A stretch of DNA of 64,000 bases from Alphaproteobacteria bacterium (GCA_017528205.1 JAFXPE010000004.1:15079-79078); one strand, 5' to 3'. Counted from the stretch's first letter, positions 28,199 to 64,000 are shown. The notes: a model not told the origin generated them from the sequence alone. Program-made: numbers and translations.

Positions 28199-28342
28199 CT
28201 TTTTCTCCCCGTAAAAAAGCAAATTTACAATATTTCATCAGCACGTCTTATACCATTCATCATCGCAATTTTCAAGAATTTTTTCTTGATTTATTTAATT
28301 ATCCGTGATAGCTTGTTTTGTAATGTATTTTGGGGATAAAAT

Positions 28343-37376: not shown

Positions 37377-38459
37377 TTAAATTACAACAAAAAACCGCCG
37401 CAAAAGTTTTTGATAGGTTTCCAAATCATCAATGCTGATGTGTTCGTTTTCCGAATGAGCCTGCTCTATGCTTCCGCAACCGCACAAATAAACGTTTTGC
37501 CCGATTTCGGCCAAATATCCCGCCTCTGATGTGTAAGAAAGCTTTGTCGGCTTTATTTGCAGTTTGGCGCAAAAATCACTTATCTGCTTTTTATCATTGG
37601 CCTGATAACCCAAAAACTCGGCAGTTTTAATTGTTTCAATGCGCGCGGCCGGATATTGTTTGATGACGGCCGCAGTTTTTTGCTGATATTCTCGAACAAT
37701 TTTTTTTGCGCTTTCTTCACTTGTGTAGCGGAAACCCCATTCAATTTCCGCCTTGTCCGGAATTACGGCAATGTTGCCGCCGCCCGATAACGAGCCGACA
37801 TTTAAGTATATTTCATTCCCCAGAGCTTTTTGCGCAATCTTTTCCAGTTCTTGCACAATTTTCGCGGCAATAAACAAGGCGTTTATCCCCTTATTGGGCA
37901 CAGAAGAATGTGCGGATATACCATTAATAATCGTTTTATAGCTTTTTATCCCTGTGCTTTGAATCCCCAACTGATTGGCAGTCGGTTCGCCTAGAATTGT
38001 GAGCTGCGGCCGAATGTTTTGTTTTTGCAAAAAGGCGCACACGTCTTTAATGCCTTGCATTTCGCTTTCTTCGTCGCAGGTAAAACACAAAATTATCGGC
38101 ATTTTCAATGTATTAAAGTATGATATTAAATTTAAATAGCAAGCTATAGCACCTTTCATATCGGTTGTGCCGCGGCCATAGATTTTCCCGTCGGCAACAG
38201 TCGGCTTAAATTGCCCTGCTTTGCCGCCAACAACATCCAGATGACCGCAGAGCATAACTCCCGAGCGAATATCTTTCAACTCGGCAACGTTAAGTCCTAT
38301 AAGCAAATTATCCTTGCCGTTTGTCGGAATACATTGGATTATGCATTGCGGGCTTTGATGCCGAATGTAGTCTTTGATATATTGCACACATTGCAGATGA
38401 TTGGCAGCATTTCCGTCGGTTTTTAGGGAAATCAGGTCGTTTAATATCTTATGCAACAT
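37377..38459 (-). CDS. M20-family metallopeptidase/deacylase (ArgE/DapE-like)
   Basis: ...LCGHLDVV...GRGTTDMKG...E..E motif order of M20. The start was set to the internal ATG (MLHKILND), with an aaggagag RBS, rather than the longer ORF. Confidence 0.7.
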   Translation of the reverse strand: MLHKILNDLISLKTDGNAANHLQCVQYIKDYIRHQSPQCIIQCIPTNGKDNLLIGLNVAELKDIRSGVMLCGHLDVVGGKAGQFKPTVADGKIYGRGTTDMKGAIACYLNLISYFNTLKMPIILCFTCDEESEMQGIKDVCAFLQKQNIRPQLTILGEPTANQLGIQSTGIKSYKTIINGISAHSSVPNKGINALFIAAKIVQELEKIAQKALGNEIYLNVGSLSGGGNIAVIPDKAEIEWGFRYTSEESAKKIVREYQQKTAAVIKQYPAARIETIKTAEFLGYQANDKKQISDFCAKLQIKPTKLSYTSEAGYLAEIGQNVYLCGCGSIEQAHSENEHISIDDLETYQKLLRRFFVVI

Positions 38460-38767
38460 TTTTCTCTCCTTAAAGTTAAAATCAAAACCAACCTTTAAAG
38501 AGAGCAAAAAATAAACCCATCGATAACGACAGGCTCTGAAATTCGCCCATCGTTCAAGCTTTAGCACCGTGCATTTTGTCGGTTGCTGTGTGGTCAAAGG
38601 GCTTGTCCCTCGCACACTCTTTATAGGTTGCTTGCAATTTACAACAGAATTTTTCTTTTTTCAAGCAAAATCGGCCGAATTGTTGTCTGATTACGGCATC
38701 ACTTCATGATATTATAAAACCGCCGCAAAAGTTACGGCGGTTGTTATAAATTCTGCTCGTTTTCCGC

Positions 38768-45514: not shown

Positions 45515-46345
45515 TCATTTGATAAACTCGCTCACCGTATTGTATAAGTCGTCTAAATTTCCCTTATTTTCAAAATTGTGACCGCTATGCGGAACTATCT
45601 CCAACTTATCTTCGGACGACATATATGCGGATAAACCGGATATTGCTTCCGGATTTACCACCTTGTCATCTTCTCCGGCTACCAATAAAATCGGCGTTTT
45701 AATTGCCGGCAGAATTTCCTTGGCGTCATAAGACTTAGCGTCTTCCACAGTTTGATACGAAATTGTGGCCTGTTTACCGAACGGTTTATATTCGTAGTAA
45801 CCGTTTTGTTTCCAGTTGCGGCAAAAATCGGGCATATTCTGCATACAGGTATCCTCCCAATTTTGGCCGCTAACCACCGGCGTTACCGGTATGGTTAAGC
45901 TGACCTTTTCCGGATGTTCATAAGTATATACCAACACCGCCGCCGCGCCGAGCGAATGTCCGGCCAGTGCAAACGGCTGATGATAAAATTCTTGAGTTTC
46001 GGCCCACTCAATCACGGTGTTTAAATCTTCGTCAAAAGTTTTGAGCCTCGCGTTTTCAACCCCGCCGAAACTTTTGCCGATGGAAAAACGGCTGTCAAAC
46101 AAAACCACCGTATAACCCTTATCCAAAAATGCTTGCTTAAGCGTTTGCACCACGGTATGTTCCTTATCGGCGGCCAAACCGTGCTGAATAAACGCCAACT
46201 GATTGCCGGAAGTATCCGACGGCTTGAAAACCTCTACAGCAATATCTTGGTTGTCGGCGTTTTTAATTTGTACTTCTTTGGCGTTGTAGGCCGTAGAACA
46301 AGCCGTTATCACTACCAGAAATATAACACACAGCCACTTTTTCAT
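45515..46345 (-). CDS. Secreted alpha/beta-hydrolase (lipoprotein-like signal)
   Basis: A signal peptide with Cys (...VVITACST...) and the nucleophile elbow GHSLGAA. Confidence 0.6.
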   Translation of the reverse strand: MKKWLCVIFLVVITACSTAYNAKEVQIKNADNQDIAVEVFKPSDTSGNQLAFIQHGLAADKEHTVVQTLKQAFLDKGYTVVLFDSRFSIGKSFGGVENARLKTFDEDLNTVIEWAETQEFYHQPFALAGHSLGAAAVLVYTYEHPEKVSLTIPVTPVVSGQNWEDTCMQNMPDFCRNWKQNGYYEYKPFGKQATISYQTVEDAKSYDAKEILPAIKTPILLVAGEDDKVVNPEAISGLSAYMSSEDKLEIVPHSGHNFENKGNLDDLYNTVSEFIK

Positions 46346-46379: not shown

Positions 46380-48974
46380 TTAATACTTTCCCTCATAAGC
46401 ATCCAAATAAATCTGTTTCATGTCGCTCATCAGCGGATATACCGGATTGGCGCCGGTGCATTGATCATCAAACGCTAAGCGCACCAGTTTATCCAAATTT
46501 GCCTTAAAGGTCTTTTCAGCAATACCCCATTCGCGAATAGACTTTGGAATACCGATTTTAGCCTTTAAATCAGCAACGGCTTCTATTAGGCGATCTACCT
46601 TTAAATCCGCCGGATCATCTTCATTTACCAAATACAGATTGTGCGCAATCTGTCCATAGCGCTTTTTGGCTTCCGGCGCCTTATATTGTGGGAAAGCAGT
46701 TTGTTTTTTCGGACAATCTGTCGCATTAAAACGTATAACCTGGCAAATCAGGAGCGCATTGGCAATTCCGTGCGGAATATTATACATAGCTCCGAGTTTG
46801 TGCGCCATCGAATGGCAAATTCCCAAAAACGCATTGGCAAACGCCATACCGGCAATAGTCGCGGCATTGTGCATTTTTTCGCGCGCTTTCGGATTTGCCG
46901 CACCTTCGGCATATGCTTGCGGCAAGTAGCGGAAAATCTGCTTAATGGCTTCCAAAGCCAGAGAATTGGTATAATTGGTTGCCATAACCGAAACATAAGC
47001 CTCCAAAGCGTGAACCAAAGCGTCAATACCGCCGGCCGAAGTCAATCCCTTTGGCATACCGTCAACAAAATTGGCGTCAATAATGGCCATTTTCGGGGTT
47101 AAGGCATAATCGGCAATAGCATATTTAACGTGCGTTTCATCATCGGTAATAATCGAAAACGGTGTAACTTCCGAACCGGTACCCGAGGTAGTCGGAATAC
47201 ATACCAAATCAGCCTTTTTGCCCAGTTCCGGAATCGAACAAATACGTTTTCTGATATCCATAAAGCGCATGGAAATATCTTCAAAATCGGTATCCGGCTG
47301 TTCGTACATCAACCAAATGATTTTGCCGACATCCATCGGTGAGCCGCCACCCAAAGCAACGATTAAATCCGGCTGATACGCATTAACCATAGTCATCGCC
47401 TGTTTGGCTGTGGAAAGTGTCGGGTCCGGCTGAACATCAAAGAATATCTGATAATCAATATCCATAGCTTCAAAAGTGTCGGTAATCGTGCGCACTGCAC
47501 CGGAATCAAACAAAAATCTGTCGGTTACGATAAAGGCGCGTTTTTTGCCGGCGTATTCTTGTAATGCCAACTCGGTTGAACCGCGCTTGAAATAAATTTT
47601 TGGAGGTACTCTGAACCACAGCATATTTTCTCTCCTTTCTGCAACTGTTTTATAATTTACCAAATGTTTTACGCCCACGTTTTCGCTCACCGTGTTACCG
47701 CCCCACGAACCGCAACCCAAGGTTAATGACGGTTCCAAGCGGAAATTATACAAATCGCCGATACCTCCTTGCGATGCCGGACTGTTGATTAACACCCGGC
47801 CGGTCGGCATTTTTTGCGCATAAATATCAATGCGGGTTTGGTCTCTTTCATCGGTATAAAGCACCGAAGTATGCCCCAAACCGCCCAAGTTAATCAATGC
47901 ATAGGCAATATCCGTGGCTTTTGCGAAATTATCGGCCTTATACATAGCCAAAATCGGCGAAAGTTTTTCGTGTGCATACGGATTGCTTTCGTCATAAGAA
48001 GTTTGCTCAGCCAGCAAAATTTTGGCGTCTTGCGGAATTTTAAAACCGGCCAATTCGGCAATTTTGCTCGCCGGCTGTCCGACAATGGCCGCATTCACCC
48101 CCTTATCGGTTAAAATGATTTTCTTTAATTTTTCGGTTTCGGTTTTATTCAACAAATAGGCACCGCGATATACAAACTCTTTTTTTACGGCCTCATACAC
48201 ATCTTTTACCACAATTACTGATTGCTCGGAAGCACAAATCATACCGTTATCAAAAGTTTTAGACATCAAAATCGACGACACCGCGTTCACAATATCAGCT
48301 GTTTCGTCAATCACCGCCGGAGTATTACCGGACCCTACACCCAACGCCGGTTTTCCGCTGCTGTAAGCGGCCTTCACCATTCCCAAACCGCCGGTAGCCA
48401 AAATGGCCTGTATCTTCGGATGCGTCATCAAATATTGAGTTAATTCCAAAGACGGCTCATCAATCCAGCCGATAATATCTTGCGGAGCACCTGCCTTAAC
48501 CGCCGCATCAAGCACAACTTTGGCCGCCGCCACGGTACATTTTTTGGCGCGCGGGTGCGGCGAAAAGATGATGCCGTTGCGGGTTTTCAAACAAATCAAA
48601 GACTTAAATATGGCGGTTGAAGTCGGGTTAGTGGTCGGCACCACGCCGGCAATAACACCCAATGGCGAAGCCACGATTTTGGTGCCGTTTATTTTGTCGC
48701 GGCTGATAATGCCGCAAGTTCTTTTGTTTTTATGCTTATTATATATATATTCTGCCGCAAAATGGTTTTTGATGATTTTATCTTCCAAAACTCCCATACC
48801 GGTTTCGGCTACCGCAAACTCGGCCAAATCTATGCGCATTTTGTTGGCTGCCATGGCCGCGGCCTTGAAAATGGCATCAACTTTTGCTTCGGAAAAAGTC
48901 GCAAACTGATTTTGCGCAACATGGACTCTTTCTATTAAAGCATCCAAATCTTTGATTGTTTTGACTTCACTCAT
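46380..48974 (-). CDS. adhE: Bifunctional acetaldehyde-CoA/alcohol dehydrogenase
   Basis: 864 aa: an N-terminal ALDH domain and a C-terminal Fe-ADH domain (...GGGSPMDVGK...), colinear with AdhE. Confidence 0.9.
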   Translation of the reverse strand: MSEVKTIKDLDALIERVHVAQNQFATFSEAKVDAIFKAAAMAANKMRIDLAEFAVAETGMGVLEDKIIKNHFAAEYIYNKHKNKRTCGIISRDKINGTKIVASPLGVIAGVVPTTNPTSTAIFKSLICLKTRNGIIFSPHPRAKKCTVAAAKVVLDAAVKAGAPQDIIGWIDEPSLELTQYLMTHPKIQAILATGGLGMVKAAYSSGKPALGVGSGNTPAVIDETADIVNAVSSILMSKTFDNGMICASEQSVIVVKDVYEAVKKEFVYRGAYLLNKTETEKLKKIILTDKGVNAAIVGQPASKIAELAGFKIPQDAKILLAEQTSYDESNPYAHEKLSPILAMYKADNFAKATDIAYALINLGGLGHTSVLYTDERDQTRIDIYAQKMPTGRVLINSPASQGGIGDLYNFRLEPSLTLGCGSWGGNTVSENVGVKHLVNYKTVAERRENMLWFRVPPKIYFKRGSTELALQEYAGKKRAFIVTDRFLFDSGAVRTITDTFEAMDIDYQIFFDVQPDPTLSTAKQAMTMVNAYQPDLIVALGGGSPMDVGKIIWLMYEQPDTDFEDISMRFMDIRKRICSIPELGKKADLVCIPTTSGTGSEVTPFSIITDDETHVKYAIADYALTPKMAIIDANFVDGMPKGLTSAGGIDALVHALEAYVSVMATNYTNSLALEAIKQIFRYLPQAYAEGAANPKAREKMHNAATIAGMAFANAFLGICHSMAHKLGAMYNIPHGIANALLICQVIRFNATDCPKKQTAFPQYKAPEAKKRYGQIAHNLYLVNEDDPADLKVDRLIEAVADLKAKIGIPKSIREWGIAEKTFKANLDKLVRLAFDDQCTGANPVYPLMSDMKQIYLDAYEGKY

Positions 48975-48976
48975 TT

Positions 48977-50440
48977 TTATTCCTTTCTATTTTCCAATGA
49001 TTGTCCTTTTGCCCCGTATTCCTTAACTTTTTTAGTTGCGTCTTTAAGCGCTCCCAAGCAGGCATTTCCGGCCACACAGCCCCCCGGACAGCACATAATT
49101 TCTAACAAATTTCCGGCCGGACATTGGCCGGTTTTGGCATACATTTTCAAATCGCGTATTGACGTTTTATCTAAGCCGTTGACAATAACCGGTTTGATGG
49201 CATCTTTTTCGCCGCGCCATGCCGCCTGAACGGATTTTGCCACACCGCCGGAAACGGCAAATTCCCTTGCCTCGGTTGAGCTTTGATATGCAAATTCTTT
49301 ATCTGCGCAAGTTTCAATTTCAATACCCAAAGCAATCAACACCGCACCCAATTCTTCAAAGTTCAACAAATAGTTAACGTTCGGATTATCCAAAACTTCG
49401 CGCCGCTTGGCAAAACACGGGCTGATAAACACCGTAACGGCATCCGGATGCTCTTTTTTAACGATTTCGGCCGTATAATAAAGCGGTGTGTGGGCGTCGG
49501 AAACATATGGCTGTATTTCCGGCAGGTGTTTTTTCACCAATTCGTTGTACGCGGCACAACACGATGTAGTCATAAACGGAGCCCCGTTTTTCAGACGCTC
49601 TTGAAAATCTTTGGCCTCGGTAGTGGCGGTTACATCGGCGCCTTGGGCAACTTCATATACCTGACTGAAGCCGATTTTGAGCAACGCATCTTTAATTTGC
49701 CCCGCCGAACATGGCAAATGACCGACCAACGCCGGCGCAAACATAGCAATTACTTCTTTGCCGCTTTTGATTTGTTTCAATATATCAATCACCTGTGATT
49801 TGGCGTGAACAGCGCCAAACGGACAAGCCGAAACGCATTTGCCGCAAGAGATACATTTTTCGGTATCTATACGGGCAAAACCGCGTTCATCTTTAACAAT
49901 TGCACCCACCGGACAGGCATTTTCGCACGGAACCACGGTCTTTACGATTGCACCGTACGGGCAGGAGCTCATACACATACCGCATTTTTTGCACTTATCC
50001 GGATCAATAGATGCTTTACCGTTAACGTGCGAAATGGCACCGAAACGACAAGTGTTCATACACGGACGCGCTACGCATCCTTGACATAAATCGGTAACAT
50101 AAATTCTGGCAGCCTGACAGCTGTGGCAAGCACTTTCTACCACGGTCAACGGATTTGAATCCGGCTTTTGGCGTTGCAACGCTCTTTGCGCATATTCGGA
50201 TAGCAAAGTCTTTTCATCATCATCTTCAATGGAAAAACCCAATCCGGCCAAAGTTCTGGCACGCAATATACCACGTTCTTTATAAACGCAACAGCGAAAC
50301 GGGACATCAGAATATTTCGGACGCATATCATACGGGATAAGCCGCGTATTTTCAGCAAAATTATCAGATAAAAAAGCGCGAATTAAGCGCACTAAAACTT
50401 CTCGTTTTAATCTTTTGGTTTCTAATTCAGAACTAATCAT
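48977..50440 (-). CDS. [FeFe]-hydrogenase-like protein with ferredoxin-type clusters and non-canonical H-cluster motifs (HfsD/sensory-type)
   Basis: Two 4Fe-4S motifs (CKKCGMCMSSCP, CISCGKCVSACP) and H-cluster-like motifs: TSCCAAY (canonical TSCCPxW), SPCFAKRRE (PCxxKxxE) and EIMCCPGGCVAG (MACPGGC). Confidence 0.6.
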   Translation of the reverse strand: MISSELETKRLKREVLVRLIRAFLSDNFAENTRLIPYDMRPKYSDVPFRCCVYKERGILRARTLAGLGFSIEDDDEKTLLSEYAQRALQRQKPDSNPLTVVESACHSCQAARIYVTDLCQGCVARPCMNTCRFGAISHVNGKASIDPDKCKKCGMCMSSCPYGAIVKTVVPCENACPVGAIVKDERGFARIDTEKCISCGKCVSACPFGAVHAKSQVIDILKQIKSGKEVIAMFAPALVGHLPCSAGQIKDALLKIGFSQVYEVAQGADVTATTEAKDFQERLKNGAPFMTTSCCAAYNELVKKHLPEIQPYVSDAHTPLYYTAEIVKKEHPDAVTVFISPCFAKRREVLDNPNVNYLLNFEELGAVLIALGIEIETCADKEFAYQSSTEAREFAVSGGVAKSVQAAWRGEKDAIKPVIVNGLDKTSIRDLKMYAKTGQCPAGNLLEIMCCPGGCVAGNACLGALKDATKKVKEYGAKGQSLENRKE

Positions 50441-50693
50441 TTTTTAACCTTTTCTCTATTGCGGCATAAACTTTTTCAATATCGGCCGCGGAAATTATTT
50501 CATCTTCGACCAGAACGTATGGAGCCTTGGAAAAAGAATCCGCGTGATTACAAGCCCCTAAGCATCTTGCCGACACAATTTCAATTCTGGCCGCATATCT
50601 TTGTGTTAACGCGGTCAAAACCGGCTTAATGGTTCCGCCGCCCATCACAAAACAGGTCGTTCCCTCGCATATCTTTACGGTTACTTTTTCCAT
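50433..50693 (-). CDS. Thioredoxin-like [2Fe-2S] ferredoxin (small HydC/NuoE-like protein)
   Basis: Four-Cys pattern C-x4-C...C-x3-C (...KICEGTTCFVMGG...ARCLGACNHAD...). Confidence 0.5.
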   Translation of the reverse strand: MEKVTVKICEGTTCFVMGGGTIKPVLTALTQRYAARIEIVSARCLGACNHADSFSKAPYVLVEDEIISAADIEKVYAAIEKRLKND

Positions 50694-50702
50694 TTGCCTC
50701 TC

Positions 50703-51863
50703 CTATATATAACTGATTGTTACTTGTTTAAAATATTTATCTTCTAATAATTTTTTCATTTTTTTTATTACCGTGCGACGAACTTCAATTTCTACCGGTA
50801 AGGCTGGATCATAATGCGCCTGATTCAGCATCGCCCCGACCATAAATTCGATAATATCTGACTCCAACAAGAACTTTACCAACAATCCGGCGGCATCTTT
50901 GTGTTGCAGTTCTTCGCGTTCCAAATACTCCGCCGCTCGTGTAAGCGTCAAAATACCTTCGGTTACCAAATCAACACCGTCCATTGCCGCAACCGGCGGC
51001 AAATCTCCGCATTCTGTTTGCGGAATATTAACAATTTCGCGCCTTAACTCGCGAGAAATCATATTTGCAGTTGTCCCACCGCATATAGCTTTTTTACCGC
51101 CGAAAAATCCAAAAGACAAGCAATATTCGCGATCTTTGGATTTATTGTATGGCGGACCGGTAAAAATTAGGGATTTTCGCGGATTTCTGAAGTAGAGAAC
51201 GCTACACGATATATCATCGCCGGCGTGTTGCTCCGGTTCAACCGATAGTGCTTTCTCAATTACCCATTTGGCTAATTCCGAGCTGGATTCTTTGGGATAT
51301 AATTCCAAGTGTGATTTTAAAGCGGTCAGCAAACCCCGGCGCTGAAAACCGAGAGGATATTCCCTTGTACCGATACCGGCCTGAGTTACTCCGTCAGAAC
51401 AAAAAATAATACGGTCACCGACTTCTGCCTGAAAACGATATAAGCGTAAATGTCGATCCGGATATTGCGGTGAGGTAAATTCTTTGTATGCAAGCGGCAA
51501 TTCTTCATTTTTACGCATTAAAACAAACGCCGGATTACCTTCTTCTACCACCCAGACACTGCCATCATTACGGCAATCCACAGCAGAAAAAGTTGCATAG
51601 CTGATTTTGCGAATTTGGCAAATCGGCAGAGAATCCATTATGATTTGTGCCGCCTTACGAATTGAAATATCTTCCTCAATAAACCGCGCCAACATAGTTG
51701 CCGTCATGCATGACAAAATATTGGCTTTAATACCGCTTCCCAAACCGTCTGACAACACGGCAATAAGACGTTTCTGATTGTCAGAACGCTTAGATATGAA
51801 ATAATCACCAAAGGCATTCTGTCCGAACTTTTTGATTTGTGCGCAATCTATATCAATGAACAT
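50703..51863 (-). CDS. PP2C-type (SpoIIE/RsbU-like) serine phosphatase with a C-terminal uncharacterised domain
   Basis: ...FGDYFISKRS...LIAVLSDGLGSGIKANILS... and ...IIFCSDGVTQAG..., the PP2C metal-binding motifs. Confidence 0.7.
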   Translation of the reverse strand: MFIDIDCAQIKKFGQNAFGDYFISKRSDNQKRLIAVLSDGLGSGIKANILSCMTATMLARFIEEDISIRKAAQIIMDSLPICQIRKISYATFSAVDCRNDGSVWVVEEGNPAFVLMRKNEELPLAYKEFTSPQYPDRHLRLYRFQAEVGDRIIFCSDGVTQAGIGTREYPLGFQRRGLLTALKSHLELYPKESSSELAKWVIEKALSVEPEQHAGDDISCSVLYFRNPRKSLIFTGPPYNKSKDREYCLSFGFFGGKKAICGGTTANMISRELRREIVNIPQTECGDLPPVAAMDGVDLVTEGILTLTRAAEYLEREELQHKDAAGLLVKFLLESDIIEFMVGAMLNQAHYDPALPVEIEVRRTVIKKMKKLLEDKYFKQVTISYI

Positions 51864-53576
51864 TTATTCCTCTTCTTCCGGATCATATTCATTGGCAATG
51901 GTGTTTAAAATGCTTTCCGTTTGCACCATGTGTTCACCCAACAAGCAAGCAATCTGCTGAACTGTGGCAATATTTTTATCAATGACTTCCTTAGCCTTTT
52001 GAGCAACCAATTCATGCGAACGATTAACATTCGTCATATCCGTAATCGTTGCTCCGATGCTGATGTTTTCTTCAATCGGGAAAACATGCAAATCGTAAAA
52101 CTTACTATTAAAACGATGATTTTCTTTATGTATCTCTTTATTGCCCGACAAGGCCGAAGCAAACACTTTTTGCGCGTCAAAAAAGTTTTCAATCGGATAA
52201 CCTATTAACTTTTGCGGATCGGATAAATACATTTCCTTATCTGCTTTGACGAACATTTTTATAAAAGCTTCGTTAGCTTCTGAAATTTGCATATTTTTAT
52301 CCAAAATCACCATCGCTGACGGAATATTCTTCAGCAAGGCATCGGCTTTTTTGGTTGCCAACTTACGCATATACGATACACACATCGACGGCTCAGCATC
52401 TCCTTTAAGTAAGGCAATCGCCATATCGTGACAGGTTTGATAACCGCAACCGGCGCAATTGAGTTCGTCTTCCGGTGTATATTTACCGATTTTATGCAGT
52501 GCATTGCGAATATCATCAAGCGAATAAGTTTTAACCTCAATCGGCTGCGGGGTATATTCCTCCATTACCACAACTTCCGGTGCGGTAGGTATTGTATCAC
52601 GATGTTTGATATGTCGCAAAATACGGGAAATATTGTTGGTATCCGAAACGTCTGTCGAAATGCACGGACCATGAATACAGCCGCCGGCACACGCCAAGGC
52701 TTCCACAAAAATCGGATTTTTTATTTCGTCTTCCGTAAAGGAATTAACCGCCAAATCAAATGCTTCCAAAGAACAAACTTGATAAAGCTGGACATTACCG
52801 TTAATACCTACCTTCTTAATGGTTTCATTCATACCGCCATCCATCGGATACAGATTTCCCTCATAAGCGATTTCAGGCACAAAAAACTCGTTGGCACACT
52901 CGCCTTCTTCGGTTTTGCGATCAAGTTCTTTGAGCCAAATTTTCAGCTCTTCAAATGTCAACGCGTAATTCATCAAATTCGGATGGGCATCTGCCTCTTC
53001 TTTTTTGGCGATACACGGACCGACAAATACAACTGCAATATCTTCTCCCAAAGTTTTTCTTAAATATTTGGCATGTGTTAAAGCCGGAGAAGCAATCGGT
53101 ACAATATATTTTGCCAATTCAGGTTTATATAAACGGATATATTTTACAATCACCGGACAGGCACTGGAAATCATCAATCCACGCTCTTTTTGATTTAGAA
53201 GACGTGCCGTTTCTATGGAAACCTCCTGCGCTCCGATTGCCGTTTCGCTCACACCGGCAAAGCCCAATTTTTTCAAGGTGGCAATCATTTGTTTCGAGGT
53301 GCAAGCAAAAGATGCCCGCCAACTCGGTGCCAACGACACATAAACTTTTTTTCCGCTTGCCAGCAACTTGCGCACCGGTTCCAAATCGCTTCTAACCCTT
53401 TTGGCATGGCTCGGACACGGAGCTACGCAACGACCGCAAGAAATACACTTATCGGCCAGAACACGAGCGTGCCCGTCCTGAATCCGAATTGACTTTACCG
53501 GACAACGGCGCACACATTTGTAACAATCTTGGCATTCATTATATAAAGTATATACCGTTCCTGTTATTTCACTCAT
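51864..53576 (-). CDS. Sensory [FeFe]-hydrogenase (HydS/HfsB-like) with a C-terminal PAS domain
   Basis: An N-terminal 4Fe-4S (CQDCYKCVRRCP...CISCGRCVAPCP), an H-cluster-like domain with altered motifs (SSACPVIVKY, GPCIAKKEE, EALACAGGCIHGP), then a PAS-like segment (...SAMVILDKNMQISEANEAFIKMF...). Confidence 0.7.
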   Translation of the reverse strand: MSEITGTVYTLYNECQDCYKCVRRCPVKSIRIQDGHARVLADKCISCGRCVAPCPSHAKRVRSDLEPVRKLLASGKKVYVSLAPSWRASFACTSKQMIATLKKLGFAGVSETAIGAQEVSIETARLLNQKERGLMISSACPVIVKYIRLYKPELAKYIVPIASPALTHAKYLRKTLGEDIAVVFVGPCIAKKEEADAHPNLMNYALTFEELKIWLKELDRKTEEGECANEFFVPEIAYEGNLYPMDGGMNETIKKVGINGNVQLYQVCSLEAFDLAVNSFTEDEIKNPIFVEALACAGGCIHGPCISTDVSDTNNISRILRHIKHRDTIPTAPEVVVMEEYTPQPIEVKTYSLDDIRNALHKIGKYTPEDELNCAGCGYQTCHDMAIALLKGDAEPSMCVSYMRKLATKKADALLKNIPSAMVILDKNMQISEANEAFIKMFVKADKEMYLSDPQKLIGYPIENFFDAQKVFASALSGNKEIHKENHRFNSKFYDLHVFPIEENISIGATITDMTNVNRSHELVAQKAKEVIDKNIATVQQIACLLGEHMVQTESILNTIANEYDPEEEE

Positions 53577-53803
53577 AATTCCTCCAGTATTTTCAATAAT
53601 TCTTCCGGAGTCAGCTTTGAATATTTCTTATTATCAATAAAAACATTCGGACCATCCTGACACGCATCGCTACAACGACATCCGATAAGTTCCAAAGAAT
53701 GCTCTTTTCGATTTTTTTGAATGTAGTCATCTATTAAAGCCAATGTCTTATCGTTGCCGCGCACATAACAAGAACTTCCCAAACATACTTTTATAACAGC
53801 CAT
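53573..53803 (-). CDS. Small thioredoxin-like [2Fe-2S] ferredoxin (HfsA-like)
   Basis: CLGSSCYVRG...CRCSDACQDGP four-Cys pattern; 76 aa. It overlaps the hydS-like start by 4 nt. Confidence 0.5.
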   Translation of the reverse strand: MAVIKVCLGSSCYVRGNDKTLALIDDYIQKNRKEHSLELIGCRCSDACQDGPNVFIDNKKYSKLTPEELLKILEEL

Positions 53804-53951
53804 TTACTCATCCTTTTTTGATTTTTTTATAGCATATTTAACCTGTTCCGTGTTGTCAAGAGCAAATCGCCTGATATCATTTTCAGTAAAAATACCCCCT
53901 TAAACCAGAATTGTGTACTGATTTAAGGGGGTATTTTATCTTGATACTCTT

Positions 53952-55721
53952 TTATTTTTTATATAAAGGACGTTTGCTGTATTTGGTGTGCAACAAGTGG
54001 TGCGATTTTTCGCCACCGGCCGTTCCCAAATAATCGGCATACAGCTTTTTAATCGACTCGTTTTTGTGCGACAAGCGATTTTTGGCTTCTTCATCTTCCG
54101 AATTCAAGCCTTTAGAGCGCAATTTACGAATTTCGTCGTTGATACCCCATGGTTTATCAAACGTTGCGCCCATCACGCGCGGTTGGCCGCCACCGGCAAT
54201 GCAACCGCCCGGACAAGCCATAACCTCAATAAAGTGATACGGCAATTCCGTACCCTCGGCTTTGGCCTTGTTGATGGCCTCCATAACCGGAGCCACATTG
54301 CCAATGCCGTTAACAACAGCTATGCGTACCTTGGTGCCTTTAATATCTATTTCGGCAACTTTAACGGCATCTAAGCCTTCAATTTGCTTAAAGTTGAGAG
54401 CGCCGAGCTCCTCGCCGGTAATATAGAAGTAAGCCGTGCGCAAAGCCGCGGTCATCACCCCGCCGGTTACGCCGAAAATGGTTGCCGCACCGGAATATTC
54501 GCCCAGCGGATTGTCCGCTTCTTCATCCGGAAGTTTTTTGAAGTTGATACCGGCGGCCTTAATCATTTTAGCCAGCTCACGAGTGGTAATCACTTCATCA
54601 ACATCTTGATAACCCGACGAGCTCATAGTTTCGTTGCGCACGTTTTCCCACTTTTTAGCGGTACACGGCATAACCGAAACCACTTTTACTTTAGAGGCAT
54701 CAACACCGGCTTTTTCTGCCCAATAAGTCTTGGCAATCGCGCCTACCATTTGATGCGGCGATTTGCAAGAAGACAGGTTTTCTATATTATCCGGATAATA
54801 TTTTTCCAGATAATCAACCCACGCCGGACAGCATGAAGTAAACATCGGCATACGGTCGTTGCCCGTAAAGCGTTTTACAAACTCGGAAGCTTCTTCAATA
54901 ATCGTCAGATCGGCGCCGAAGTTGGTGTCAAACACTTTGGTAAAACCTAAGCGACGCAATGCAGCATAAATCTTTCCGGTTAAGTTGGTACCGAAATCAA
55001 AACCGAACTCTTCGCCTAAAGCCACACGTACGGCCGGAGCAATCTGCACCACCGTTACGTTTTCCTTGTCATTGAGCAAAGCCGCAACTTTTTGCGTATT
55101 ATCATAGTCGGTAATGGCACCTGTCGGGCAGTGAGCTGCGCATTGTCCGCACTTAATGCACGGAGAATCCATCAATTTAGTATCGTTAGAACCGGTGATT
55201 TTGGTAACAAAACCGCGGTGCAAATAACTCAAAGCCCAAACATTTTGCACGTTTTGGCAGATATTGACGCATCTGCCGCAAACAATACATTTTGCCGGAT
55301 CTAAAACAATCGCCTTGGTAGAATCATCTTTCGGCTCTTGCGAAACCAGTTTGATGATTTCGTTTTGGTCAATTCCCAGCTCAGCAGTAATATCTTGCAA
55401 TTCGCAAGAACCGCTGCGCGAACAATTCAAACAATCATTCGGGTGGTTGCTCAAAATCAGCTTCAGCACGGTTTTTCTGATTTCTTTTAATTCCGCATCC
55501 GAAGTAACAACTTCCATACCCTCAGAAACCGGCGTACAGCAAGAACGCATGATTCTGCCGCCAACTTTTACGATACACATACCGCAACCGGCACTCGGAT
55601 CAACGTCCGGGTGTTTACAAAGTGTCGGAATGTTTATTTGCACTTTTCTGGCGGCGTCCAATATGCTTGTACCGGCTTCAACTTCAACTTCTATATTGTC
55701 AATTTTCAATTTAACCATCAC
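53952..55721 (-). CDS. hydA: [FeFe]-hydrogenase catalytic subunit HydA (trimeric/bifurcating type)
   Basis: An N-terminal 2Fe-2S and ferredoxin-like clusters plus canonical H-cluster motifs: FTSCCPAWVDY, MPCTAKKWE, EVMACPGGCIAGGGQP. Confidence 0.9.
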   Translation of the reverse strand: MMVKLKIDNIEVEVEAGTSILDAARKVQINIPTLCKHPDVDPSAGCGMCIVKVGGRIMRSCCTPVSEGMEVVTSDAELKEIRKTVLKLILSNHPNDCLNCSRSGSCELQDITAELGIDQNEIIKLVSQEPKDDSTKAIVLDPAKCIVCGRCVNICQNVQNVWALSYLHRGFVTKITGSNDTKLMDSPCIKCGQCAAHCPTGAITDYDNTQKVAALLNDKENVTVVQIAPAVRVALGEEFGFDFGTNLTGKIYAALRRLGFTKVFDTNFGADLTIIEEASEFVKRFTGNDRMPMFTSCCPAWVDYLEKYYPDNIENLSSCKSPHQMVGAIAKTYWAEKAGVDASKVKVVSVMPCTAKKWENVRNETMSSSGYQDVDEVITTRELAKMIKAAGINFKKLPDEEADNPLGEYSGAATIFGVTGGVMTAALRTAYFYITGEELGALNFKQIEGLDAVKVAEIDIKGTKVRIAVVNGIGNVAPVMEAINKAKAEGTELPYHFIEVMACPGGCIAGGGQPRVMGATFDKPWGINDEIRKLRSKGLNSEDEEAKNRLSHKNESIKKLYADYLGTAGGEKSHHLLHTKYSKRPLYKK

Positions 55722-55723
55722 GA

Positions 55724-57403
55724 TTACTCCTTCTCTTTACCGTCAAGCAATTTGTTTGTGTATTCTTCTTCATAGAAACGAAGCGTGGATAATACCGGAT
55801 TTGGTGCGGTTTGGCCCAAGCCGCAAAGCGAAGCTTTCTGCATAGCAAAGGCAATTTTCTTTAATTGTTCCAAATCTTTCTTTTTGCCGCGACCACGATT
55901 GATTTTATCGAGCAAAAGCAACATCTGCTTGCCGCCGATACGACACGGAGCACATTTGCCGCAAGACTCATCAACCGTAAAGTCCAGATAGAATTTGGCC
56001 AAAGCAACCATATCCGACGAATCGTCAATCACGATTAAACCGCCGGAGCCCATAATTGAGCCGATTTTTTTCAATTCTTCATAGCAAACCGGCATATCCA
56101 TCAACTTGGCAGGAATAAGTCCGCCCGACGGACCGCCCGATTGTACGGCTTTCAGCGTTTTGCCTTCCGGCACGCCGCCGCCGATTTCGTTAACAATCTC
56201 GTTAATGGTGGTTCCCATCGGCACTTCGATCAAACCGGAATGTTCAACTTGACCGGTAAGCGCAAACACTTTTGTCCCTTTGGAAGTTTCGGTTCCGAAA
56301 GAAGCAAACCAATCGGCGCCTTTCATCAAAATCTTCGATACGTTGGCTAGCGTTTCCACGTTGTTAACGCAAGACGGTTTGCCCCACAAACCTTTGTTGG
56401 TCGGATACGGCGGACGCGGACGCGGTGTACCTCTGGCGCCCTCAATGGAGTGAATCAAAGCGGTTTCTTCACCGCAAACAAACGCGCCGGCACCCAGACG
56501 AATGTCGATATTAAACGAAAAATCCGTACCCATAATGTTTTTGCCCAAAAGCAAATTCTTGCGGCAAGCTTGAATTGCCTTTTGCAATCTTTCCACCGCC
56601 AACGGATATTCGGCACGAACATAAAACCAACCTTCGGTAGCCCCGATGGCATAAGCGGCAATCATCATACCTTCGATAACCGCGTGCGGGTCACCTTCCA
56701 AAATGGAACGGTCCATGTATGCGCCCGGGTCGCCTTCATCGCCGTTACAAATAATGAATTTTTCATCAATTGTCGGCACTTTGGCTGCCAATTCCCATTT
56801 CATACCGGTAGAGAAACCGCCACCGCCGCGACCGCGCAAGCCGGATTTTTTAATTTCTTCCACCACCTGTTGCGGTGTCATAGTTTTCAAGGCCTTTTCC
56901 AAAGCCAAATAACCGCCTCTGGCCATATATTCGGAAATATCTTCCGGATCAATGTGACCGGCGTTTTTCAAAACCACTTTTTCCTGCTTGGTAAAGAACG
57001 GCAAATCCAGCGACAGAACGTAAGATTTAAGCTCGTCTGCCAACACCATATCGCCGGTATTACCTAAAGCCGGAATAACATATTTTTCCATAATTGTCCG
57101 CGTGGCATCAAGGTCTACGCGCTTAAACAAAATATCCTTACGGCCTTTAATTTCAACTCTGATAAGCGGACCATGTGCGCAAAGGCCCATACAACCGGTG
57201 GCAACAACGCGAACCTTATCGGTTAAGGAATTTTCTTCCAAAATTTTTTGAATGAGTGCGATTAAATCGTCACTGCCCGAAGACTTACAGCCGGTTGAAT
57301 GGCAACAATAAATGCTGCATTCATATTTTTCGATTTCGGCAAGTTTGTTTTTCGCGATTGTGTGAATATCAAACTTTTTGCGGATTTCTTCCATATCTAC
57401 CAT
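55724..57403 (-). CDS. hydB: NADH-binding flavoprotein subunit HydB (NuoF/51-kDa-like)
   Basis: ...GRGGGGFSTGMKWE... FMN/NADH motifs, NuoF colinearity, and C-terminal 4Fe-4S clusters. Confidence 0.9.
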   Translation of the reverse strand: MVDMEEIRKKFDIHTIAKNKLAEIEKYECSIYCCHSTGCKSSGSDDLIALIQKILEENSLTDKVRVVATGCMGLCAHGPLIRVEIKGRKDILFKRVDLDATRTIMEKYVIPALGNTGDMVLADELKSYVLSLDLPFFTKQEKVVLKNAGHIDPEDISEYMARGGYLALEKALKTMTPQQVVEEIKKSGLRGRGGGGFSTGMKWELAAKVPTIDEKFIICNGDEGDPGAYMDRSILEGDPHAVIEGMMIAAYAIGATEGWFYVRAEYPLAVERLQKAIQACRKNLLLGKNIMGTDFSFNIDIRLGAGAFVCGEETALIHSIEGARGTPRPRPPYPTNKGLWGKPSCVNNVETLANVSKILMKGADWFASFGTETSKGTKVFALTGQVEHSGLIEVPMGTTINEIVNEIGGGVPEGKTLKAVQSGGPSGGLIPAKLMDMPVCYEELKKIGSIMGSGGLIVIDDSSDMVALAKFYLDFTVDESCGKCAPCRIGGKQMLLLLDKINRGRGKKKDLEQLKKIAFAMQKASLCGLGQTAPNPVLSTLRFYEEEYTNKLLDGKEKE

Positions 57404-57404
57404 C

Positions 57405-57881
57405 TTACGCCTCCTTAAACACTTCGCGCCATTCGTTTAAAATTTCCGGCACCTGTTCCGGTGTCATACGACCGTAAGTTTTGCCGTTTACAACGCAAAC
57501 CGGAGCCAATCCGCAACAACCTACGCAACGCACGCATTGCAGATGGAAGAGTCCGTCAGGAGTACTCTCGCCCTCTTTGATATGCAGTTCCGATTTAAAT
57601 TTTTCCAAAACCTTGTCGTTACCTTTCAAAAAGCAAGCAGTACCCGTGCATACGGAAATTACGGCCTTACCCGGTGCAACCAGCTTAAAAAAGTTATAAA
57701 ACGTCAGCACTTCGTAAATGCGTGCCAATGGTATTCCCATGGTTTGAGCCAAATCCACGGCATCTTTCCAATCAACATAGCCCTTAACGCCTTGTATTTC
57801 ATGTAAAGCCATAATCAGAGAACCGCGTTTCTTGCGCCATTTCTCACCGACACGGCAACCTAAGCAAGGTTCATTATCCAT
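57405..57881 (-). CDS. hydC: [2Fe-2S] subunit HydC (NuoE/24-kDa-like)
   Basis: ...CTGTACFLKGNDKVLEKF... and ...CVRCVGCCGLAPV..., the NuoE thioredoxin-like ferredoxin motifs. Confidence 0.85.
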   Translation of the reverse strand: MDNEPCLGCRVGEKWRKKRGSLIMALHEIQGVKGYVDWKDAVDLAQTMGIPLARIYEVLTFYNFFKLVAPGKAVISVCTGTACFLKGNDKVLEKFKSELHIKEGESTPDGLFHLQCVRCVGCCGLAPVCVVNGKTYGRMTPEQVPEILNEWREVFKEA

Positions 57882-61186: not shown

Positions 61187-61747
61187 TTACAGCCATTTTG
61201 CGGCCCATTCTTTCAACTCTTCGGCCGAAACGCCGGCAGAAAAACGCTTGCCGGAATCGACCTTAGCACCTGGAGCCAGCTTTTGCATATTGGCTCCGGA
61301 ATTGCCCATCGGGCTACCGCCGGATGTTGCAAACGGAATGACCGTTTTGCCGCTGAAATCGTAGGCTTCCATAAAGGTATCGATAATTGACGGCTCACGA
61401 TACCACCAAATCGGAAAACCGACAAACACCACCTGATATTTTCCCATATCTTCCACTTTGGAAGCAATTTCCGGCCGCGAAGCCAAATCGTTCATTTCAA
61501 CCGAGCTGCGACTTTGCTTGTCACGCCAATCCAAATCGGCGTCGCTGTAAGGCTGTTGCGGCTTTATTTCAAACAAATCGGCACCGATTGAGGTTGCCAA
61601 TCTTTCTGCCACACCGGCCGTGGTTCCGGTGGCGCTAAAATAAGCCACCAATACTTTTTTGTTTGCCATATCACTCTCCTCTGCTTGAACTTTATTCGGG
61701 GTTAAAAACGCCAACCCCACCAAAATTAAAGATAATATCTTTTTCAT
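61187..61747 (-). CDS. Flavodoxin-domain protein with an N-terminal signal peptide
   Basis: A signal peptide (MKKILSLILVGLAFLTPNKVQA), then ...KVLVAYFSATGTTAGVAERLA..., the flavodoxin FMN-binding loop. Confidence 0.65.
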   Translation of the reverse strand: MKKILSLILVGLAFLTPNKVQAEESDMANKKVLVAYFSATGTTAGVAERLATSIGADLFEIKPQQPYSDADLDWRDKQSRSSVEMNDLASRPEIASKVEDMGKYQVVFVGFPIWWYREPSIIDTFMEAYDFSGKTVIPFATSGGSPMGNSGANMQKLAPGAKVDSGKRFSAGVSAEELKEWAAKWL

Positions 61748-61802
61748 TTAATCCTCCGTTTTATCATAATTTACTGCAATATAATTTGTTATTTTATTGA
61801 TT

Positions 61803-62456
61803 TTATTCGTTTTTTACATCTATCAAAATCAATATAGTATGCTTTAGCAAACCTACTGCCCACTTAATAATCAAGGCACCGCCCAAGGCTCCGATTGCGG
61901 CATCAAGCCAAACAATATCAAAAAATTTGCCGATAATTAAGGCAACAATGGCCAAAATTGAAGTCAGCACATCGGCCAAAATATGATAATATGCCGCCTG
62001 AAAATTATAGTCCGTATGCGAATGCTCTTCGCCACGTTCCATAATTGCAATACAGGCCAAATTAATCGTCAAACCGATAACGGCCACCGTTATTGCCTCG
62101 TTAAACTCGATAGACAGCGGGTTAAAAAAGCGATTTAGCGCCTCAATCACAATCCAAATTCCGGTCAATCCCAGAAAAATTGCACTGGTATACGCCGCCA
62201 AAACCCCTATTTTTTCTGTTCCGCACGGAAACTTTGCCGAACCGGTGCATTTACGCATTAAGATATATGCCGCAAAAGTAAGCCCTAAAGCCAACGCATG
62301 CGTGCCCATATGATAACCGTCGGCCAGCAACGCCATGGAATTTGTCCAACAGCCGTAGGCAATCTCCGCTATCATAGTGATAAGCGTTAAAACTATTACC
62401 CAAAGTGTTTTACGCTCGTTTGCTTCGGTAACGCGATGTTCATGATGATGCGACAT
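61803..62456 (-). CDS. Cation diffusion facilitator (CDF) family metal transporter
   Basis: An MSHHHEHR His-rich N-terminus and TM helices with ...LADGYHMGTHALAL... and ...HILADVLTS..., the CDF metal-site motifs. Confidence 0.75.
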   Translation of the reverse strand: MSHHHEHRVTEANERKTLWVIVLTLITMIAEIAYGCWTNSMALLADGYHMGTHALALGLTFAAYILMRKCTGSAKFPCGTEKIGVLAAYTSAIFLGLTGIWIVIEALNRFFNPLSIEFNEAITVAVIGLTINLACIAIMERGEEHSHTDYNFQAAYYHILADVLTSILAIVALIIGKFFDIVWLDAAIGALGGALIIKWAVGLLKHTILILIDVKNE

Positions 62457-62550
62457 ATATTACTCCGTATTTTAAGCAAATATTGCACGGCGAGCCCGAG
62501 ATTTTGCATCTTATTTGCCGTGCAATATTTCGATATTCTGCCCGATAAAA

Positions 62551-62985
62551 TTACTTTATCTGCGAAGTGCAGTGTGGGCATCTGGTTGCTTCAATGGCTA
62601 CATCAGAACAACAATATGGGCACTTTTTGGTAGTCGGAGCAGCTTCGGCTTCTTCCTTAATCATTTTAGCTTGCAGAGTATTTATGGCCTTAATCAGGAT
62701 AAATACGGCAAATGCCACGATGATAAAGCTGATAACCGTATTTAAAAATGCACCGTATTTAATGGCAACTTCTTCGGCTTCTGCCGACTTCTGTACCAAA
62801 ATCAATTTCAAATCGGAAAAATCAACATTGCCCAAAACCCAGCCTATCGGCGGCATAATTACATCTTCAACCAAAGAGCTGACGATTTTGCCGAAAGCGG
62901 CACCGATGATGATACCGACGGCCATATCCATAACATTGCCGCGCATGGCGAATGTTTTAAATTCATTCAAAAAGTTTTTAATCAT
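62551..62985 (-). CDS. mscL: Large-conductance mechanosensitive channel MscL with a C-terminal CxxC-x11-CxxC zinc-ribbon-like tail
   Basis: MIKNFLNEFKTFAMRGNVMDMAVGIIIGAAFGKIVSSLVEDVIMPPIG... is canonical MscL. The C-terminus ...CPYCCSDVAIEATRCPHCTSQIK is unusual. Confidence 0.85.
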   Translation of the reverse strand: MIKNFLNEFKTFAMRGNVMDMAVGIIIGAAFGKIVSSLVEDVIMPPIGWVLGNVDFSDLKLILVQKSAEAEEVAIKYGAFLNTVISFIIVAFAVFILIKAINTLQAKMIKEEAEAAPTTKKCPYCCSDVAIEATRCPHCTSQIK

Positions 62986-62997
62986 TTTTGTTCCTTT

Positions 62998-64000
62998 CTA
63001 TTGATAAATTGGAAAATCGCGGCACAAAGCCACAATTTTTTCTTTGGTTTGAGCAATCACCTCATCGGCATTACCCGACTGAGCCAATGCGTCAATCACA
63101 TCGCCGATGCAATTGCCTATCAACTCAAATTCTTTTTCTTTAAATCCGCGTGTGGTACCGGCAGGAGTTCCCAAGCGCACGCCGGAAGTTATCTTCGGCG
63201 GCTGCGGATCAAACGGAATGGCGTTTTTGTTGCAGGTTATGTGCGCCTTTTCCAGCGCGGTAGTCACCACATCGCCGGTTAGCCCCTTCGGGCGTAAATC
63301 CACCAACACCAAATGTGTATCCGTGCCGCCGGAAACCAAGGCCAAACCACGCTTAACCAGCGTTTGCCCCAAAACTTCGGCGTTTTTGATAACCTGTGCG
63401 GCATAAACCTTAAACTGCGGGGTTAAATCTTCTTTGAAACATACTGCTTTTCCGGCGATAACATGTTCCAACGGCCCACCTTGAGTGCCTGGGAACACCG
63501 CCGAATTTACCTTTTTATAGATATCTTCGTTGTTGGTTAAAATCATGCCGCCGCGAGGTCCGCGCAAAGTTTTATGGGTAGTGGTAGTAACTACATCGGC
63601 CCAGTTCAGCGGATTGGGATGTACACCACCGGCCACCAGACCGGCAAAATGCGCCATATCAACCATCAAATAAGCCCCTACGCTGTCGGCAATTTTGCGA
63701 AAACGAGCAAAATCTATTTGGCGCGGATATGCCGAGCCACCGGCCACAATCACTTTCGGCTTATATTCCAAAGCCATTCTTGCGGCCGCGTCATAATCAA
63801 TCAGACCGCTGTCTTTACACACACCGTATTGCACAGCTTTATACGCCTTACCGGAAAGTGAAACTTTTGAGCCGTGGGTTAAGTGTCCGCCGGCATCCAA
63901 ACTCATTCCCATCAACGTATCGCCCGGATTCATCAAAGCAACATAAACTGCCATATTAGCTTGACTGCCGGAATGCGGCTGAACGTTGACATATTTGGCG
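62998..64000 (-). CDS. glyA: Serine hydroxymethyltransferase, 5' end beyond the window
   Basis: ...[44 protein letters not shown]... and ...[16 protein letters not shown]... are SHMT signature segments. The frame stays open to nt 64000. Confidence 0.9.

Follow-up and report, generated by a model that had tools for sequence, protein, structure and literature searches.

Two described systems stand closest to the locus analyzed here. In Ruminococcus albus, an eight-gene cluster goes down 111-fold when Wolinella removes H2, and direct sensing of H2 by its group C [FeFe]-hydrogenase together with a phosphatase has been proposed (PMC6776011). In the hfsABCD operon of Thermoanaerobacterium, HfsB is a hydrogenase with a PAS domain, HfsC is a serine phosphatase and HfsD is a HydA2-like ferredoxin hydrogenase, not a kinase, and no kinase is encoded (PMC11837493). 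Deletion of hfsB raises adhE expression and ethanol production, and this effect requires both hfsC and hfsD (PMC5707799, PMC11837493). We analyzed a stretch of 64,000 nucleotides (nt) from Alphaproteobacteria bacterium (GCA_017528205.1 JAFXPE010000004.1:15079-79078; hereafter the window, with positions counted over the whole stretch), which carries genes for a HydS-type hydrogenase, a PP2C phosphatase and a second hydrogenase between hydCBA and adhE.

The locus is a known hfs/HydS-type system in a new host, with no new mechanism. A first-pass annotation of the sequence had recognized an Hfs/HydS-type module, and this identification is borne out by the group C signature of the first hydrogenase, by the adjoining PP2C and by full-length alignment of HydS, PP2C and the second hydrogenase with their R. 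albus counterparts. The same annotation had likened the arrangement to that of Firmicutes and Thermotogae; the module type agrees, but the host lies outside both groups. The analysis shows which genes are present, the state of their active sites, how tightly the operon is packed, its flanking terminator and promoter, and how far the module is conserved over about 80 genomes. We consider it likely that the operon encodes a fermentation branch for high H2, controlled by HydS through its PP2C.

The putative sensor operon and its products

The minus-strand gene order is hydC, hydB, hydA, fdx76, hydS, pp2c, fdx86, the gene of a group B hydrogenase, and adhE. Open reading frames (ORFs) were checked and domains were called with Pfam and NCBIfam profiles, and all the genes claimed in the first-pass annotation were found at their positions on this strand. 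From fdx76 to adhE, consecutive genes overlap or are spaced by 0-9 nt: the stop of fdx76 and the start of hydS overlap in ATGA, hydS and pp2c meet in a stop-start junction (TAAATG), the 9-nt gap between pp2c and fdx86 contains a ribosome-binding site, fdx86 and the group B hydrogenase gene overlap by 8 nt, and in the junction sequence adhE starts 2 nt past the hydrogenase stop. Upstream of fdx76 lies a sigma-70-like promoter (TTGACA-17 nt-TATGCT, 53831-53859, minus strand) with 10 of 12 consensus matches, and its CTTGACA -35 element is found at the matching position in 10 of 11 sister alphaproteobacterial loci, the remaining one (L004) having CTTGAT. An Rfam scan gave no match in the locus. 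The best reading of 46380-53859 is thus a compact, translationally coupled six-gene operon consisting of the promoter, fdx76, hydS, pp2c, fdx86, the group B hydrogenase gene and adhE.

HydS (51864-53576, minus strand; 570 amino acids) was assigned by its domains and by alignment. It has Fer4, Fe_hyd_lg_C (149 bits) and PF04060 (35.5 bits, cutoff 23) domains, N-terminal 4Fe-4S motifs at C15/18/21/25 and C44/47/50/54, and a C-terminal Cx2Cx4Cx16C motif formed by C374, C377, C382 and C399. We aligned the window protein with the orthologs of 80 related loci (n = 81, CpI numbering for the substitutions). The H-cluster ligands C140, C188, C296 and C300 are invariant in all 81 sequences and K358 is retained. 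Three substitutions, Cys299 to Ala (A139), Met353 to Gly and Met497 to Leu, are each present in 81 of 81 sequences, Glu279 is replaced by Thr in 63 of 81 (T123 in the window protein), and Glu282 is always replaced by a hydrophobic residue (I, M, L or V; L126 in the window protein). HydS therefore lacks both the proton-relay Cys299 and the E279/E282 proton-pathway residues, as expected of group C, and this pattern of substitutions is the signature reported for Thermotoga maritima HydS (TmHydS) and group C enzymes (PMC10055695, PMC8163306). The 570-residue protein is by its signature a group C (M2f) sensory-type [FeFe]-hydrogenase and a putative sensor; the altered H-cluster motifs noticed at first pass are real, and the protein is not an ordinary group A enzyme. 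R. albus HydS (L084) retains the proton-relay cysteine in SSCCHS, whereas the alphaproteobacterial and Gastranaerophilales clade has SSACPV (residues 137-142), as does TmHydS, and group C sensors thus differ at the proton-relay residue.

A PAS domain had also been claimed for HydS. The window protein matches PAS_9 only weakly, at 23.1 bits (E = 9e-5) against a gathering score of 27. Residues 412-515 are matched by four PAS models, and PAS_9 matches 10 of 15 HydS orthologs at E <= 0.001 (best 5e-7). HydS probably contains a PAS domain. Beyond it, a helix at the C terminus, spanning about residues 522-561 with LLGEH within it, is conserved as far as R. albus HydS.

The second hydrogenase (48977-50440, minus strand; 487 amino acids) had been described as another degenerate H-cluster protein. 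The motifs quoted for it, TSCCAAY, SPCFAKRRE and MCCPGGC, are indeed present, at residues 292-298, 340-348 and 449-455; the conclusion drawn from them does not hold. The protein matches TIGR04105 ("monomeric [FeFe] hydrogenase, group B1") at 517.5 bits (cutoff 450), the model on which HydA2, the ferredoxin-dependent hydrogenase of R. albus, scores 577 bits. In an alignment of the window protein with 66 orthologs (n = 67), the four cluster cysteines and the proton-relay cysteine are conserved, as are the equivalents of E279, E282 (D/E), R286, S319 (T), K358 and E361, with M497 conserved in 66 of 67. M353 is the sole replaced position (to Ser), and CpII and CpIII likewise replace it, CpIII having Gly (PMC10055695). 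Group B enzymes bind the H-cluster, produce H2 and re-oxidize ferredoxin, and are experimentally active (PMC12578642). The motifs are thus non-canonical only relative to group A, and judged by its conserved residues the protein is a catalytically complete, not a degenerate, group B [FeFe]-hydrogenase of the HydA2 family (HydA2/HfsD type, monomeric and ferredoxin-dependent). Sequence matches in PDB for the group B and group C enzymes were to group A structures only, none of group B or C being solved.

The phosphatase gene pp2c (50703-51863, minus strand) encodes an HfsC-type PP2C of 386 amino acids. Its recognition next to the sensor hydrogenase was correct, since it matches PF07228 (SpoIIE, 50.8 bits) and residues 1-226 have a predicted PP2C fold (AlphaFold model, predicted local distance difference test score, pLDDT, 88.6), with Foldseek matches to 3pu9 (E = 2e-14), SpoIIE, RsbU and RsbX. 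The metal-binding motifs (GD, DGLGSG, SDG and DD) show no variation, even in the R. albus and Monoglobus proteins, and the enzyme is presumably active. It has no N-terminal regulatory domain. Residues 227-386 (50703-51185) form a separate conserved alpha/beta domain (pLDDT 87), for which no Pfam match was found at E <= 10 in the window, R. albus or Monoglobus versions, and no PDB fold match was found by Foldseek at E <= 0.001. There is only a weak likeness to methylglyoxal synthase and flavodoxin-like folds (template-modeling score about 0.4). The motifs GGTT, TEG and N-x-AH of this domain are invariant, also in R. albus and Monoglobus. In a profile search of 1.84 billion representatives the domain occurs in 944 clusters, and among the 150 clusters listed, all full-length proteins (about 385-400 amino acids) combine PP2C with this domain, the shorter matches looking like fragments. 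RsbU/RsbV/RsbW-type partner switching does not describe the locus, in which the PP2C stands alone, and neither HATPase_c_2 nor STAS was found in the scanned window ORFs.

The two small proteins, fdx76 (53573-53803, minus strand; 76 amino acids; PF01257, 45 bits) and fdx86 (50433-50693, minus strand; 86 amino acids; PF01257, 29.9 bits), are thioredoxin-like [2Fe-2S] proteins with the pattern C-x4-C...C-x3-C, the four cysteines of which are invariant. They are probably the dedicated redox partners of HydS and the group B enzyme. The last gene, adhE (46380-48974, minus strand; NF010378, 1368 bits), encodes a bifunctional acetaldehyde-CoA/alcohol dehydrogenase.

Distribution of the module and its local regulators

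Identical proteins came from metagenome contigs and an NCBI metagenome-assembled genome (MAG) labelled Alphaproteobacteria bacterium, and from no other source; the host is an uncultured gut alphaproteobacterium, neither a firmicute nor a member of Thermotogae. To compare loci we took contigs from GTDB, with one genome per species, and matched the ORFs of each locus to the window proteins by blastp; counts of conservation include only loci whose flanks are long enough. By HydS identity, the nearest relatives (58-76%) are uncultured Alphaproteobacteria from gut and rumen, with records labelled "Azospirillum sp.", Rhodospirillales or UBA3637. A further set of about 70 loci, at 52-57% HydS identity, is mostly from MAGs labelled Gastranaerophilales or Melainabacteria, and the R. 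albus and Monoglobus versions are only about 30% identical. A small [2Fe-2S] gene corresponding to fdx76 precedes HydS in 77 of 77 loci, PP2C follows HydS in 80 of 80, fdx86 follows PP2C in 76 of 79, and 54 of 61 loci have a group B hydrogenase. Among alphaproteobacterial loci, 6 of 7 include adhE in the cluster, as against 3 of 38 others.

The five-gene core (fdx, HydS, PP2C, fdx and group B hydrogenase) is syntenic between loci L004-L013/L018 and L014-L083. Because the core is syntenic, and is 52-57% identical between Alphaproteobacteria and Gastranaerophilales and about 30% identical to Firmicutes, these comparisons suggest that the module was laterally transferred between gut Alphaproteobacteria and Gastranaerophilales. 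In two Gastranaerophilales loci, L067 and L068 (9630-12867), fdx, HydS and PP2C lie beside a divergent hydCBA without the second ferredoxin or the group B hydrogenase, and the HydS-PP2C pair can thus go with the bifurcating enzyme alone.

The first-pass annotation had called the absence of a partner kinase or ATPase from the window remarkable. The absence itself holds within the scanned set: window ORFs of at least 150 amino acids and intergenic ORFs of 89-147 amino acids gave no match to a kinase, HATPase, STAS or Rex, the ORF of 4205 amino acids at 1739-14356 being unscanned, and the four ORFs at 61187-63954 being covered by the precomputed Pfam annotation of the same-species contig L001. 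Searching the window by tblastn with R. albus Rex, the R. albus APH-type kinase (PF01636) and a sister-lineage Rex gave no match. The absence is not unusual, however, as hfsABCD has no kinase, and no kinase family recurs beside the module among the clustered neighbor ORFs of 80 loci, three of the recurrent families there having no Pfam match. Similarly, the APH-like kinase is absent from the Monoglobus cluster.

Several ORFs without a Pfam match were observed at the Gastranaerophilales loci. One of 232 amino acids lies between fdx86 and the hydrogenase gene in four loci (L069:13711-14409), one of 145 amino acids is present in four loci (L019:13419-13856), and a family of about 241 amino acids is present in 27 loci (L035:7478-8203). 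Elsewhere in the window, all on the minus strand, the ORF at 1739-14356 is a giant single reading frame, an ORF at 16162-16875 matches Bundlin (type IV pilin, PF05307; E = 8e-12), 25163-28222 carries two tandem dCTP-deaminase-like genes, an Orn/DAP-type decarboxylase gene and a methyltransferase gene, and a SAM riboswitch (RF00162, 38514-38629, 65 bits, E = 8e-13) lies upstream of an M20 peptidase-like ORF (37377-38615).

Rex is present in sister lineages. A 200-residue protein of Rex architecture (PF06971 and PF02629), 35% identical to R. albus Rex, is encoded directly after adhE in seven alphaproteobacterial loci (L006, L007, L010-L013 and L018), and in four Gastranaerophilales loci rex lies between adhE and fdx76. 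In the seven rex-bearing alphaproteobacterial loci the CTTGACA promoter is conserved, and its -10 element is immediately followed by the palindrome TGTGAAAAAAATCACA or a sequence close to it, at about 12-30 nt ahead of fdx76. This palindrome is a near-perfect fit to the Rex operator TTGTGAA-W4-TTCACAA (PMC2883068), and it ends 12-14 nt ahead of the fdx76 start in the five loci in which this start is placed. Two further loci (L005 and L008), on contigs too short to reach the rex position, also carry a palindrome of the TGTGAAAAAAATCACA type. Comparison of the upstream regions with these sisters places at 53817-53832 (minus strand) of the window the sequence CTATAAAAAAATCAAA, which reads as a decayed remnant of the Rex operator. 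A Rex-box scan gave no match with <=1 mismatch in the whole window and none with <=2 mismatches in either promoter region, and the 2-mismatch matches in the window are at chance level (25 observed versus 22 expected). The slot of rex after adhE is held in the window by an alpha/beta hydrolase gene (45515-46345, minus strand), which follows adhE after a gap of 34 nt in which no terminator was seen and is possibly co-transcribed with it. The closest sister, L004, shows the same loss of rex and operator. These comparisons point to a lineage-specific loss of Rex control in the window's lineage and L004.

Proposed control and competing explanations

H2 sensing, the coupling of HydS to PP2C, the direction of regulation and its target are proposed by analogy with R. 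albus transcriptomics and Thermoanaerobacterium hfs genetics. At high H2, HydABC would be unable to dispose of NADH electrons as H2; ferredoxin would then be re-oxidized via the group B hydrogenase with production of H2, and NADH via AdhE with production of ethanol. HydS would act as a slow, sensor-type hydrogenase, the H-cluster of which reacts with H2, and the signal may pass from its C-terminal [4Fe-4S] cluster through PAS and the conserved terminal helix to the co-translated PP2C. Because the phosphatase lacks an N-terminal regulatory domain, its input would come from another protein, and the conserved stop-start junction of hydS and pp2c fits a stoichiometric complex of the two products. 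The PP2C would in turn dephosphorylate a phosphoprotein and so set the expression or activity of the hydrogenase/AdhE branch. It is consistent with the Thermoanaerobacterium genetics, in which the rise in ethanol on hfsB deletion needs hfsC and hfsD, that H2-free HydS restrains the phosphatase.

Several points weigh against this proposal. For this organism it is a prediction from sequence. The window holds neither a kinase nor a phosphoprotein substrate, which leaves a gap at the output step, and the PAS score of the window HydS is below the Pfam gathering score. TmHydS keeps measurable catalytic activity (PMC10055695), so that a sensor-only role is unproven for any member of the family. Moreover, the two loci with fdx, HydS and PP2C beside HydABC but without the group B enzyme indicate that the target may vary by lineage.

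A variant concerns the output. The four-gene core (fdx, HydS, PP2C with its C-terminal domain, and fdx) occurs without a kinase in Firmicutes, gut Alphaproteobacteria and Gastranaerophilales, and may work as a switch that on its own converts an H2 signal into phosphatase activity, the real output running via the PP2C C-terminal domain. Possible actions of that domain include the binding of a phosphometabolite, or a direct effect on the group B hydrogenase or on AdhE; a classical cascade of kinase and phosphatase would then play no part. We regard this as unlikely; if true, the switch would be the sole local control of the ethanol/H2 branch in a lineage that lacks rex and its operator.

It is also conceivable, but quite unlikely, that what HydS reads, by way of its accessory Fe-S clusters and a small [2Fe-2S] partner, is the redox state of ferredoxin or NAD(H) and not H2. 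The two dedicated [2Fe-2S] proteins are invariant in the module, HydS has an extra C-terminal [4Fe-4S] cluster beside the probable PAS domain, and HfsB is possibly responsive to intracellular redox potential (PMC11837493). However, purifying selection has kept every H-cluster ligand unchanged, which a plain Fe-S redox sensor would not require, and Rex already senses NADH in the same operon of sister lineages.

Rather improbable is a single multisubunit catalytic Hfs hydrogenase made of fdx, HydS, PP2C, fdx and the group B enzyme, in which HydS would be a further subunit for catalysis or electron transfer. The translational coupling of the genes and the near-universal co-occurrence of the five genes would suit such an enzyme, as would the residual activity of TmHydS (PMC10055695); hfs was, moreover, first described as the main hydrogenase, and deletion of hfsABCD lowers hydrogenase activity (PMC5707799, PMC11837493). 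Yet HydS has no proton relay, hfsD alone rescues the phenotype of the hfsABCD deletion (PMC11837493), and deletion of hfsB increases, not decreases, hydrogenase activity (PMC5707799). Loci L067 and L068 keep fdx, HydS and PP2C without the group B enzyme, and a complex devoted to catalysis alone would have no use for a phosphatase. Control by HydS through PP2C is the explanation that we prefer.

The remaining question concerns the neighboring hydCBA genes, all on the minus strand. hydC (57405-57881) encodes a NuoE-like [2Fe-2S] subunit (PF01257, E = 1e-45), hydB (55724-57403) a NuoF-like flavin/NAD subunit (PF01512 and PF10589; TIGR01959, 476 bits), and hydA (53952-55721; start at 55718 according to gene callers, giving 588 amino acids) a catalytic subunit that matches NF040763 (group A6, NADH-dependent) at 788 bits (cutoff 765) and has, in the alignment, the canonical motifs TSCCPAW, MPCTAKKWE and MACPGGC. 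With NuoE-like, NuoF-like and group A6 catalytic subunits encoded together, the genes specify an electron-bifurcating HydABC (group A3/A6). An intrinsic terminator with a 20-bp stem and a U-rich tail follows hydA (53885-53937, minus strand); its minimum free energy of -30.2 kcal/mol (z-score -8.6) was matched by 0 of 200 shuffled sequences. It escaped a simple hairpin scan because its loop exceeds 8 nt. Promoter-like sites precede hydCBA at 57954-57927 and 58022-57993, and a terminator-like hairpin (58083-58070) follows glyS upstream of them. With this terminator and the sensor-operon promoter both placed between hydA and fdx76, and with promoter-like sites in front of hydCBA itself, hydCBA is most likely transcribed separately from the sensor operon. 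Adjacency to the sensor module also varies: hydCBA is co-directional and upstream only in the window's species, and convergent and downstream in L004; of the 38 loci with wide flanks outside Alphaproteobacteria, 7 have it upstream and divergent.

The supraoperon of hydCBA, sensor genes and adhE proposed at first pass, with two degenerate sensory hydrogenases, is thus very improbable: the genes are contiguous on one strand and read-through of a terminator is always possible, but the strong terminator and the promoter intervene, relatives lack the hydCBA adjacency or have it in another orientation, R. albus carries hydABC on the chromosome and the sensor cluster on a plasmid (PMC10838669), and the second hydrogenase is a catalytically complete group B enzyme.

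Comparison with known systems

The hfs/HydS H2-responsive module is now placed in uncultured gut Alphaproteobacteria and Gastranaerophilales, beyond the Firmicutes and Thermotogae in which it has been studied. In those lineages it would govern the choice between H2 and ethanol, and thereby bear on interspecies H2 transfer in gut and rumen. Comparison of about 80 loci defines a conserved core of two small [2Fe-2S] proteins, HydS and PP2C with its C-terminal domain. The kinase and Rex are dispensable additions to this core. Both results should help in working out the signaling step.

The annotated record of the R. albus 7 pRUMAL01 cluster lists rex, adhE, a phosphotransferase (kinase) gene, two fdx genes, hydS, a SpoIIE-type PP2C gene and hydA2. 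The two loci share the same families, with HydS (32% identity, aligned over the full length), PP2C with the same C-terminal domain (31%), the group B enzyme (34% to HydA2, full length), AdhE (59%) and two small [2Fe-2S] proteins, and the order hydS-PP2C-hydrogenase is shared as well. They differ in that the window has neither rex nor the APH-type kinase, that adhE lies downstream in the window and upstream in R. albus, that the second ferredoxin gene of the window stands between PP2C and the hydrogenase, and that the window cluster adjoins hydCBA whereas the R. albus cluster is on a plasmid. Compared by description, the order HfsB-C-D of Thermoanaerobacterium equals hydS, pp2c and the group B enzyme, and both operons lack a kinase. 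hfsABCD is genetically tied to adhE expression and ethanol yield, but there adhE lies outside the operon, and its hosts are thermophilic Firmicutes, in contrast to a gut alphaproteobacterium.

By published features, T. maritima HydS has the same domain order as the window protein, and the two have in common the replacement of Cys299 by Ala (A131 in TmHydS, A139 in the window) and of Met353 by Gly (PMC10055695, PMC8163306), the loss of the proton pathway and the Cx2Cx4Cx16C motif; the PAS domain of TmHydS has a probable counterpart in the window protein, and Met497 is Leu in the window and Ser in TmHydS. Similarly, the window's group B enzyme shares TIGR04105, an extra ferredoxin-like domain and a complete H-cluster site with the group B enzymes of Bacteroides and with Clostridium pasteurianum CpIII, but sits in a sensor operon behind the gene of a dedicated [2Fe-2S] protein. 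A more distant parallel is the regulatory [NiFe]-hydrogenase system HoxBC-HoxJ-HoxA of Cupriavidus necator, which follows the same logic, with a crippled hydrogenase as H2 sensor tied to phospho-signaling and controlling hydrogenase genes (PMC5707799). The proteins are unrelated, and a histidine kinase and a response regulator serve there, whereas a PP2C is found in the window.

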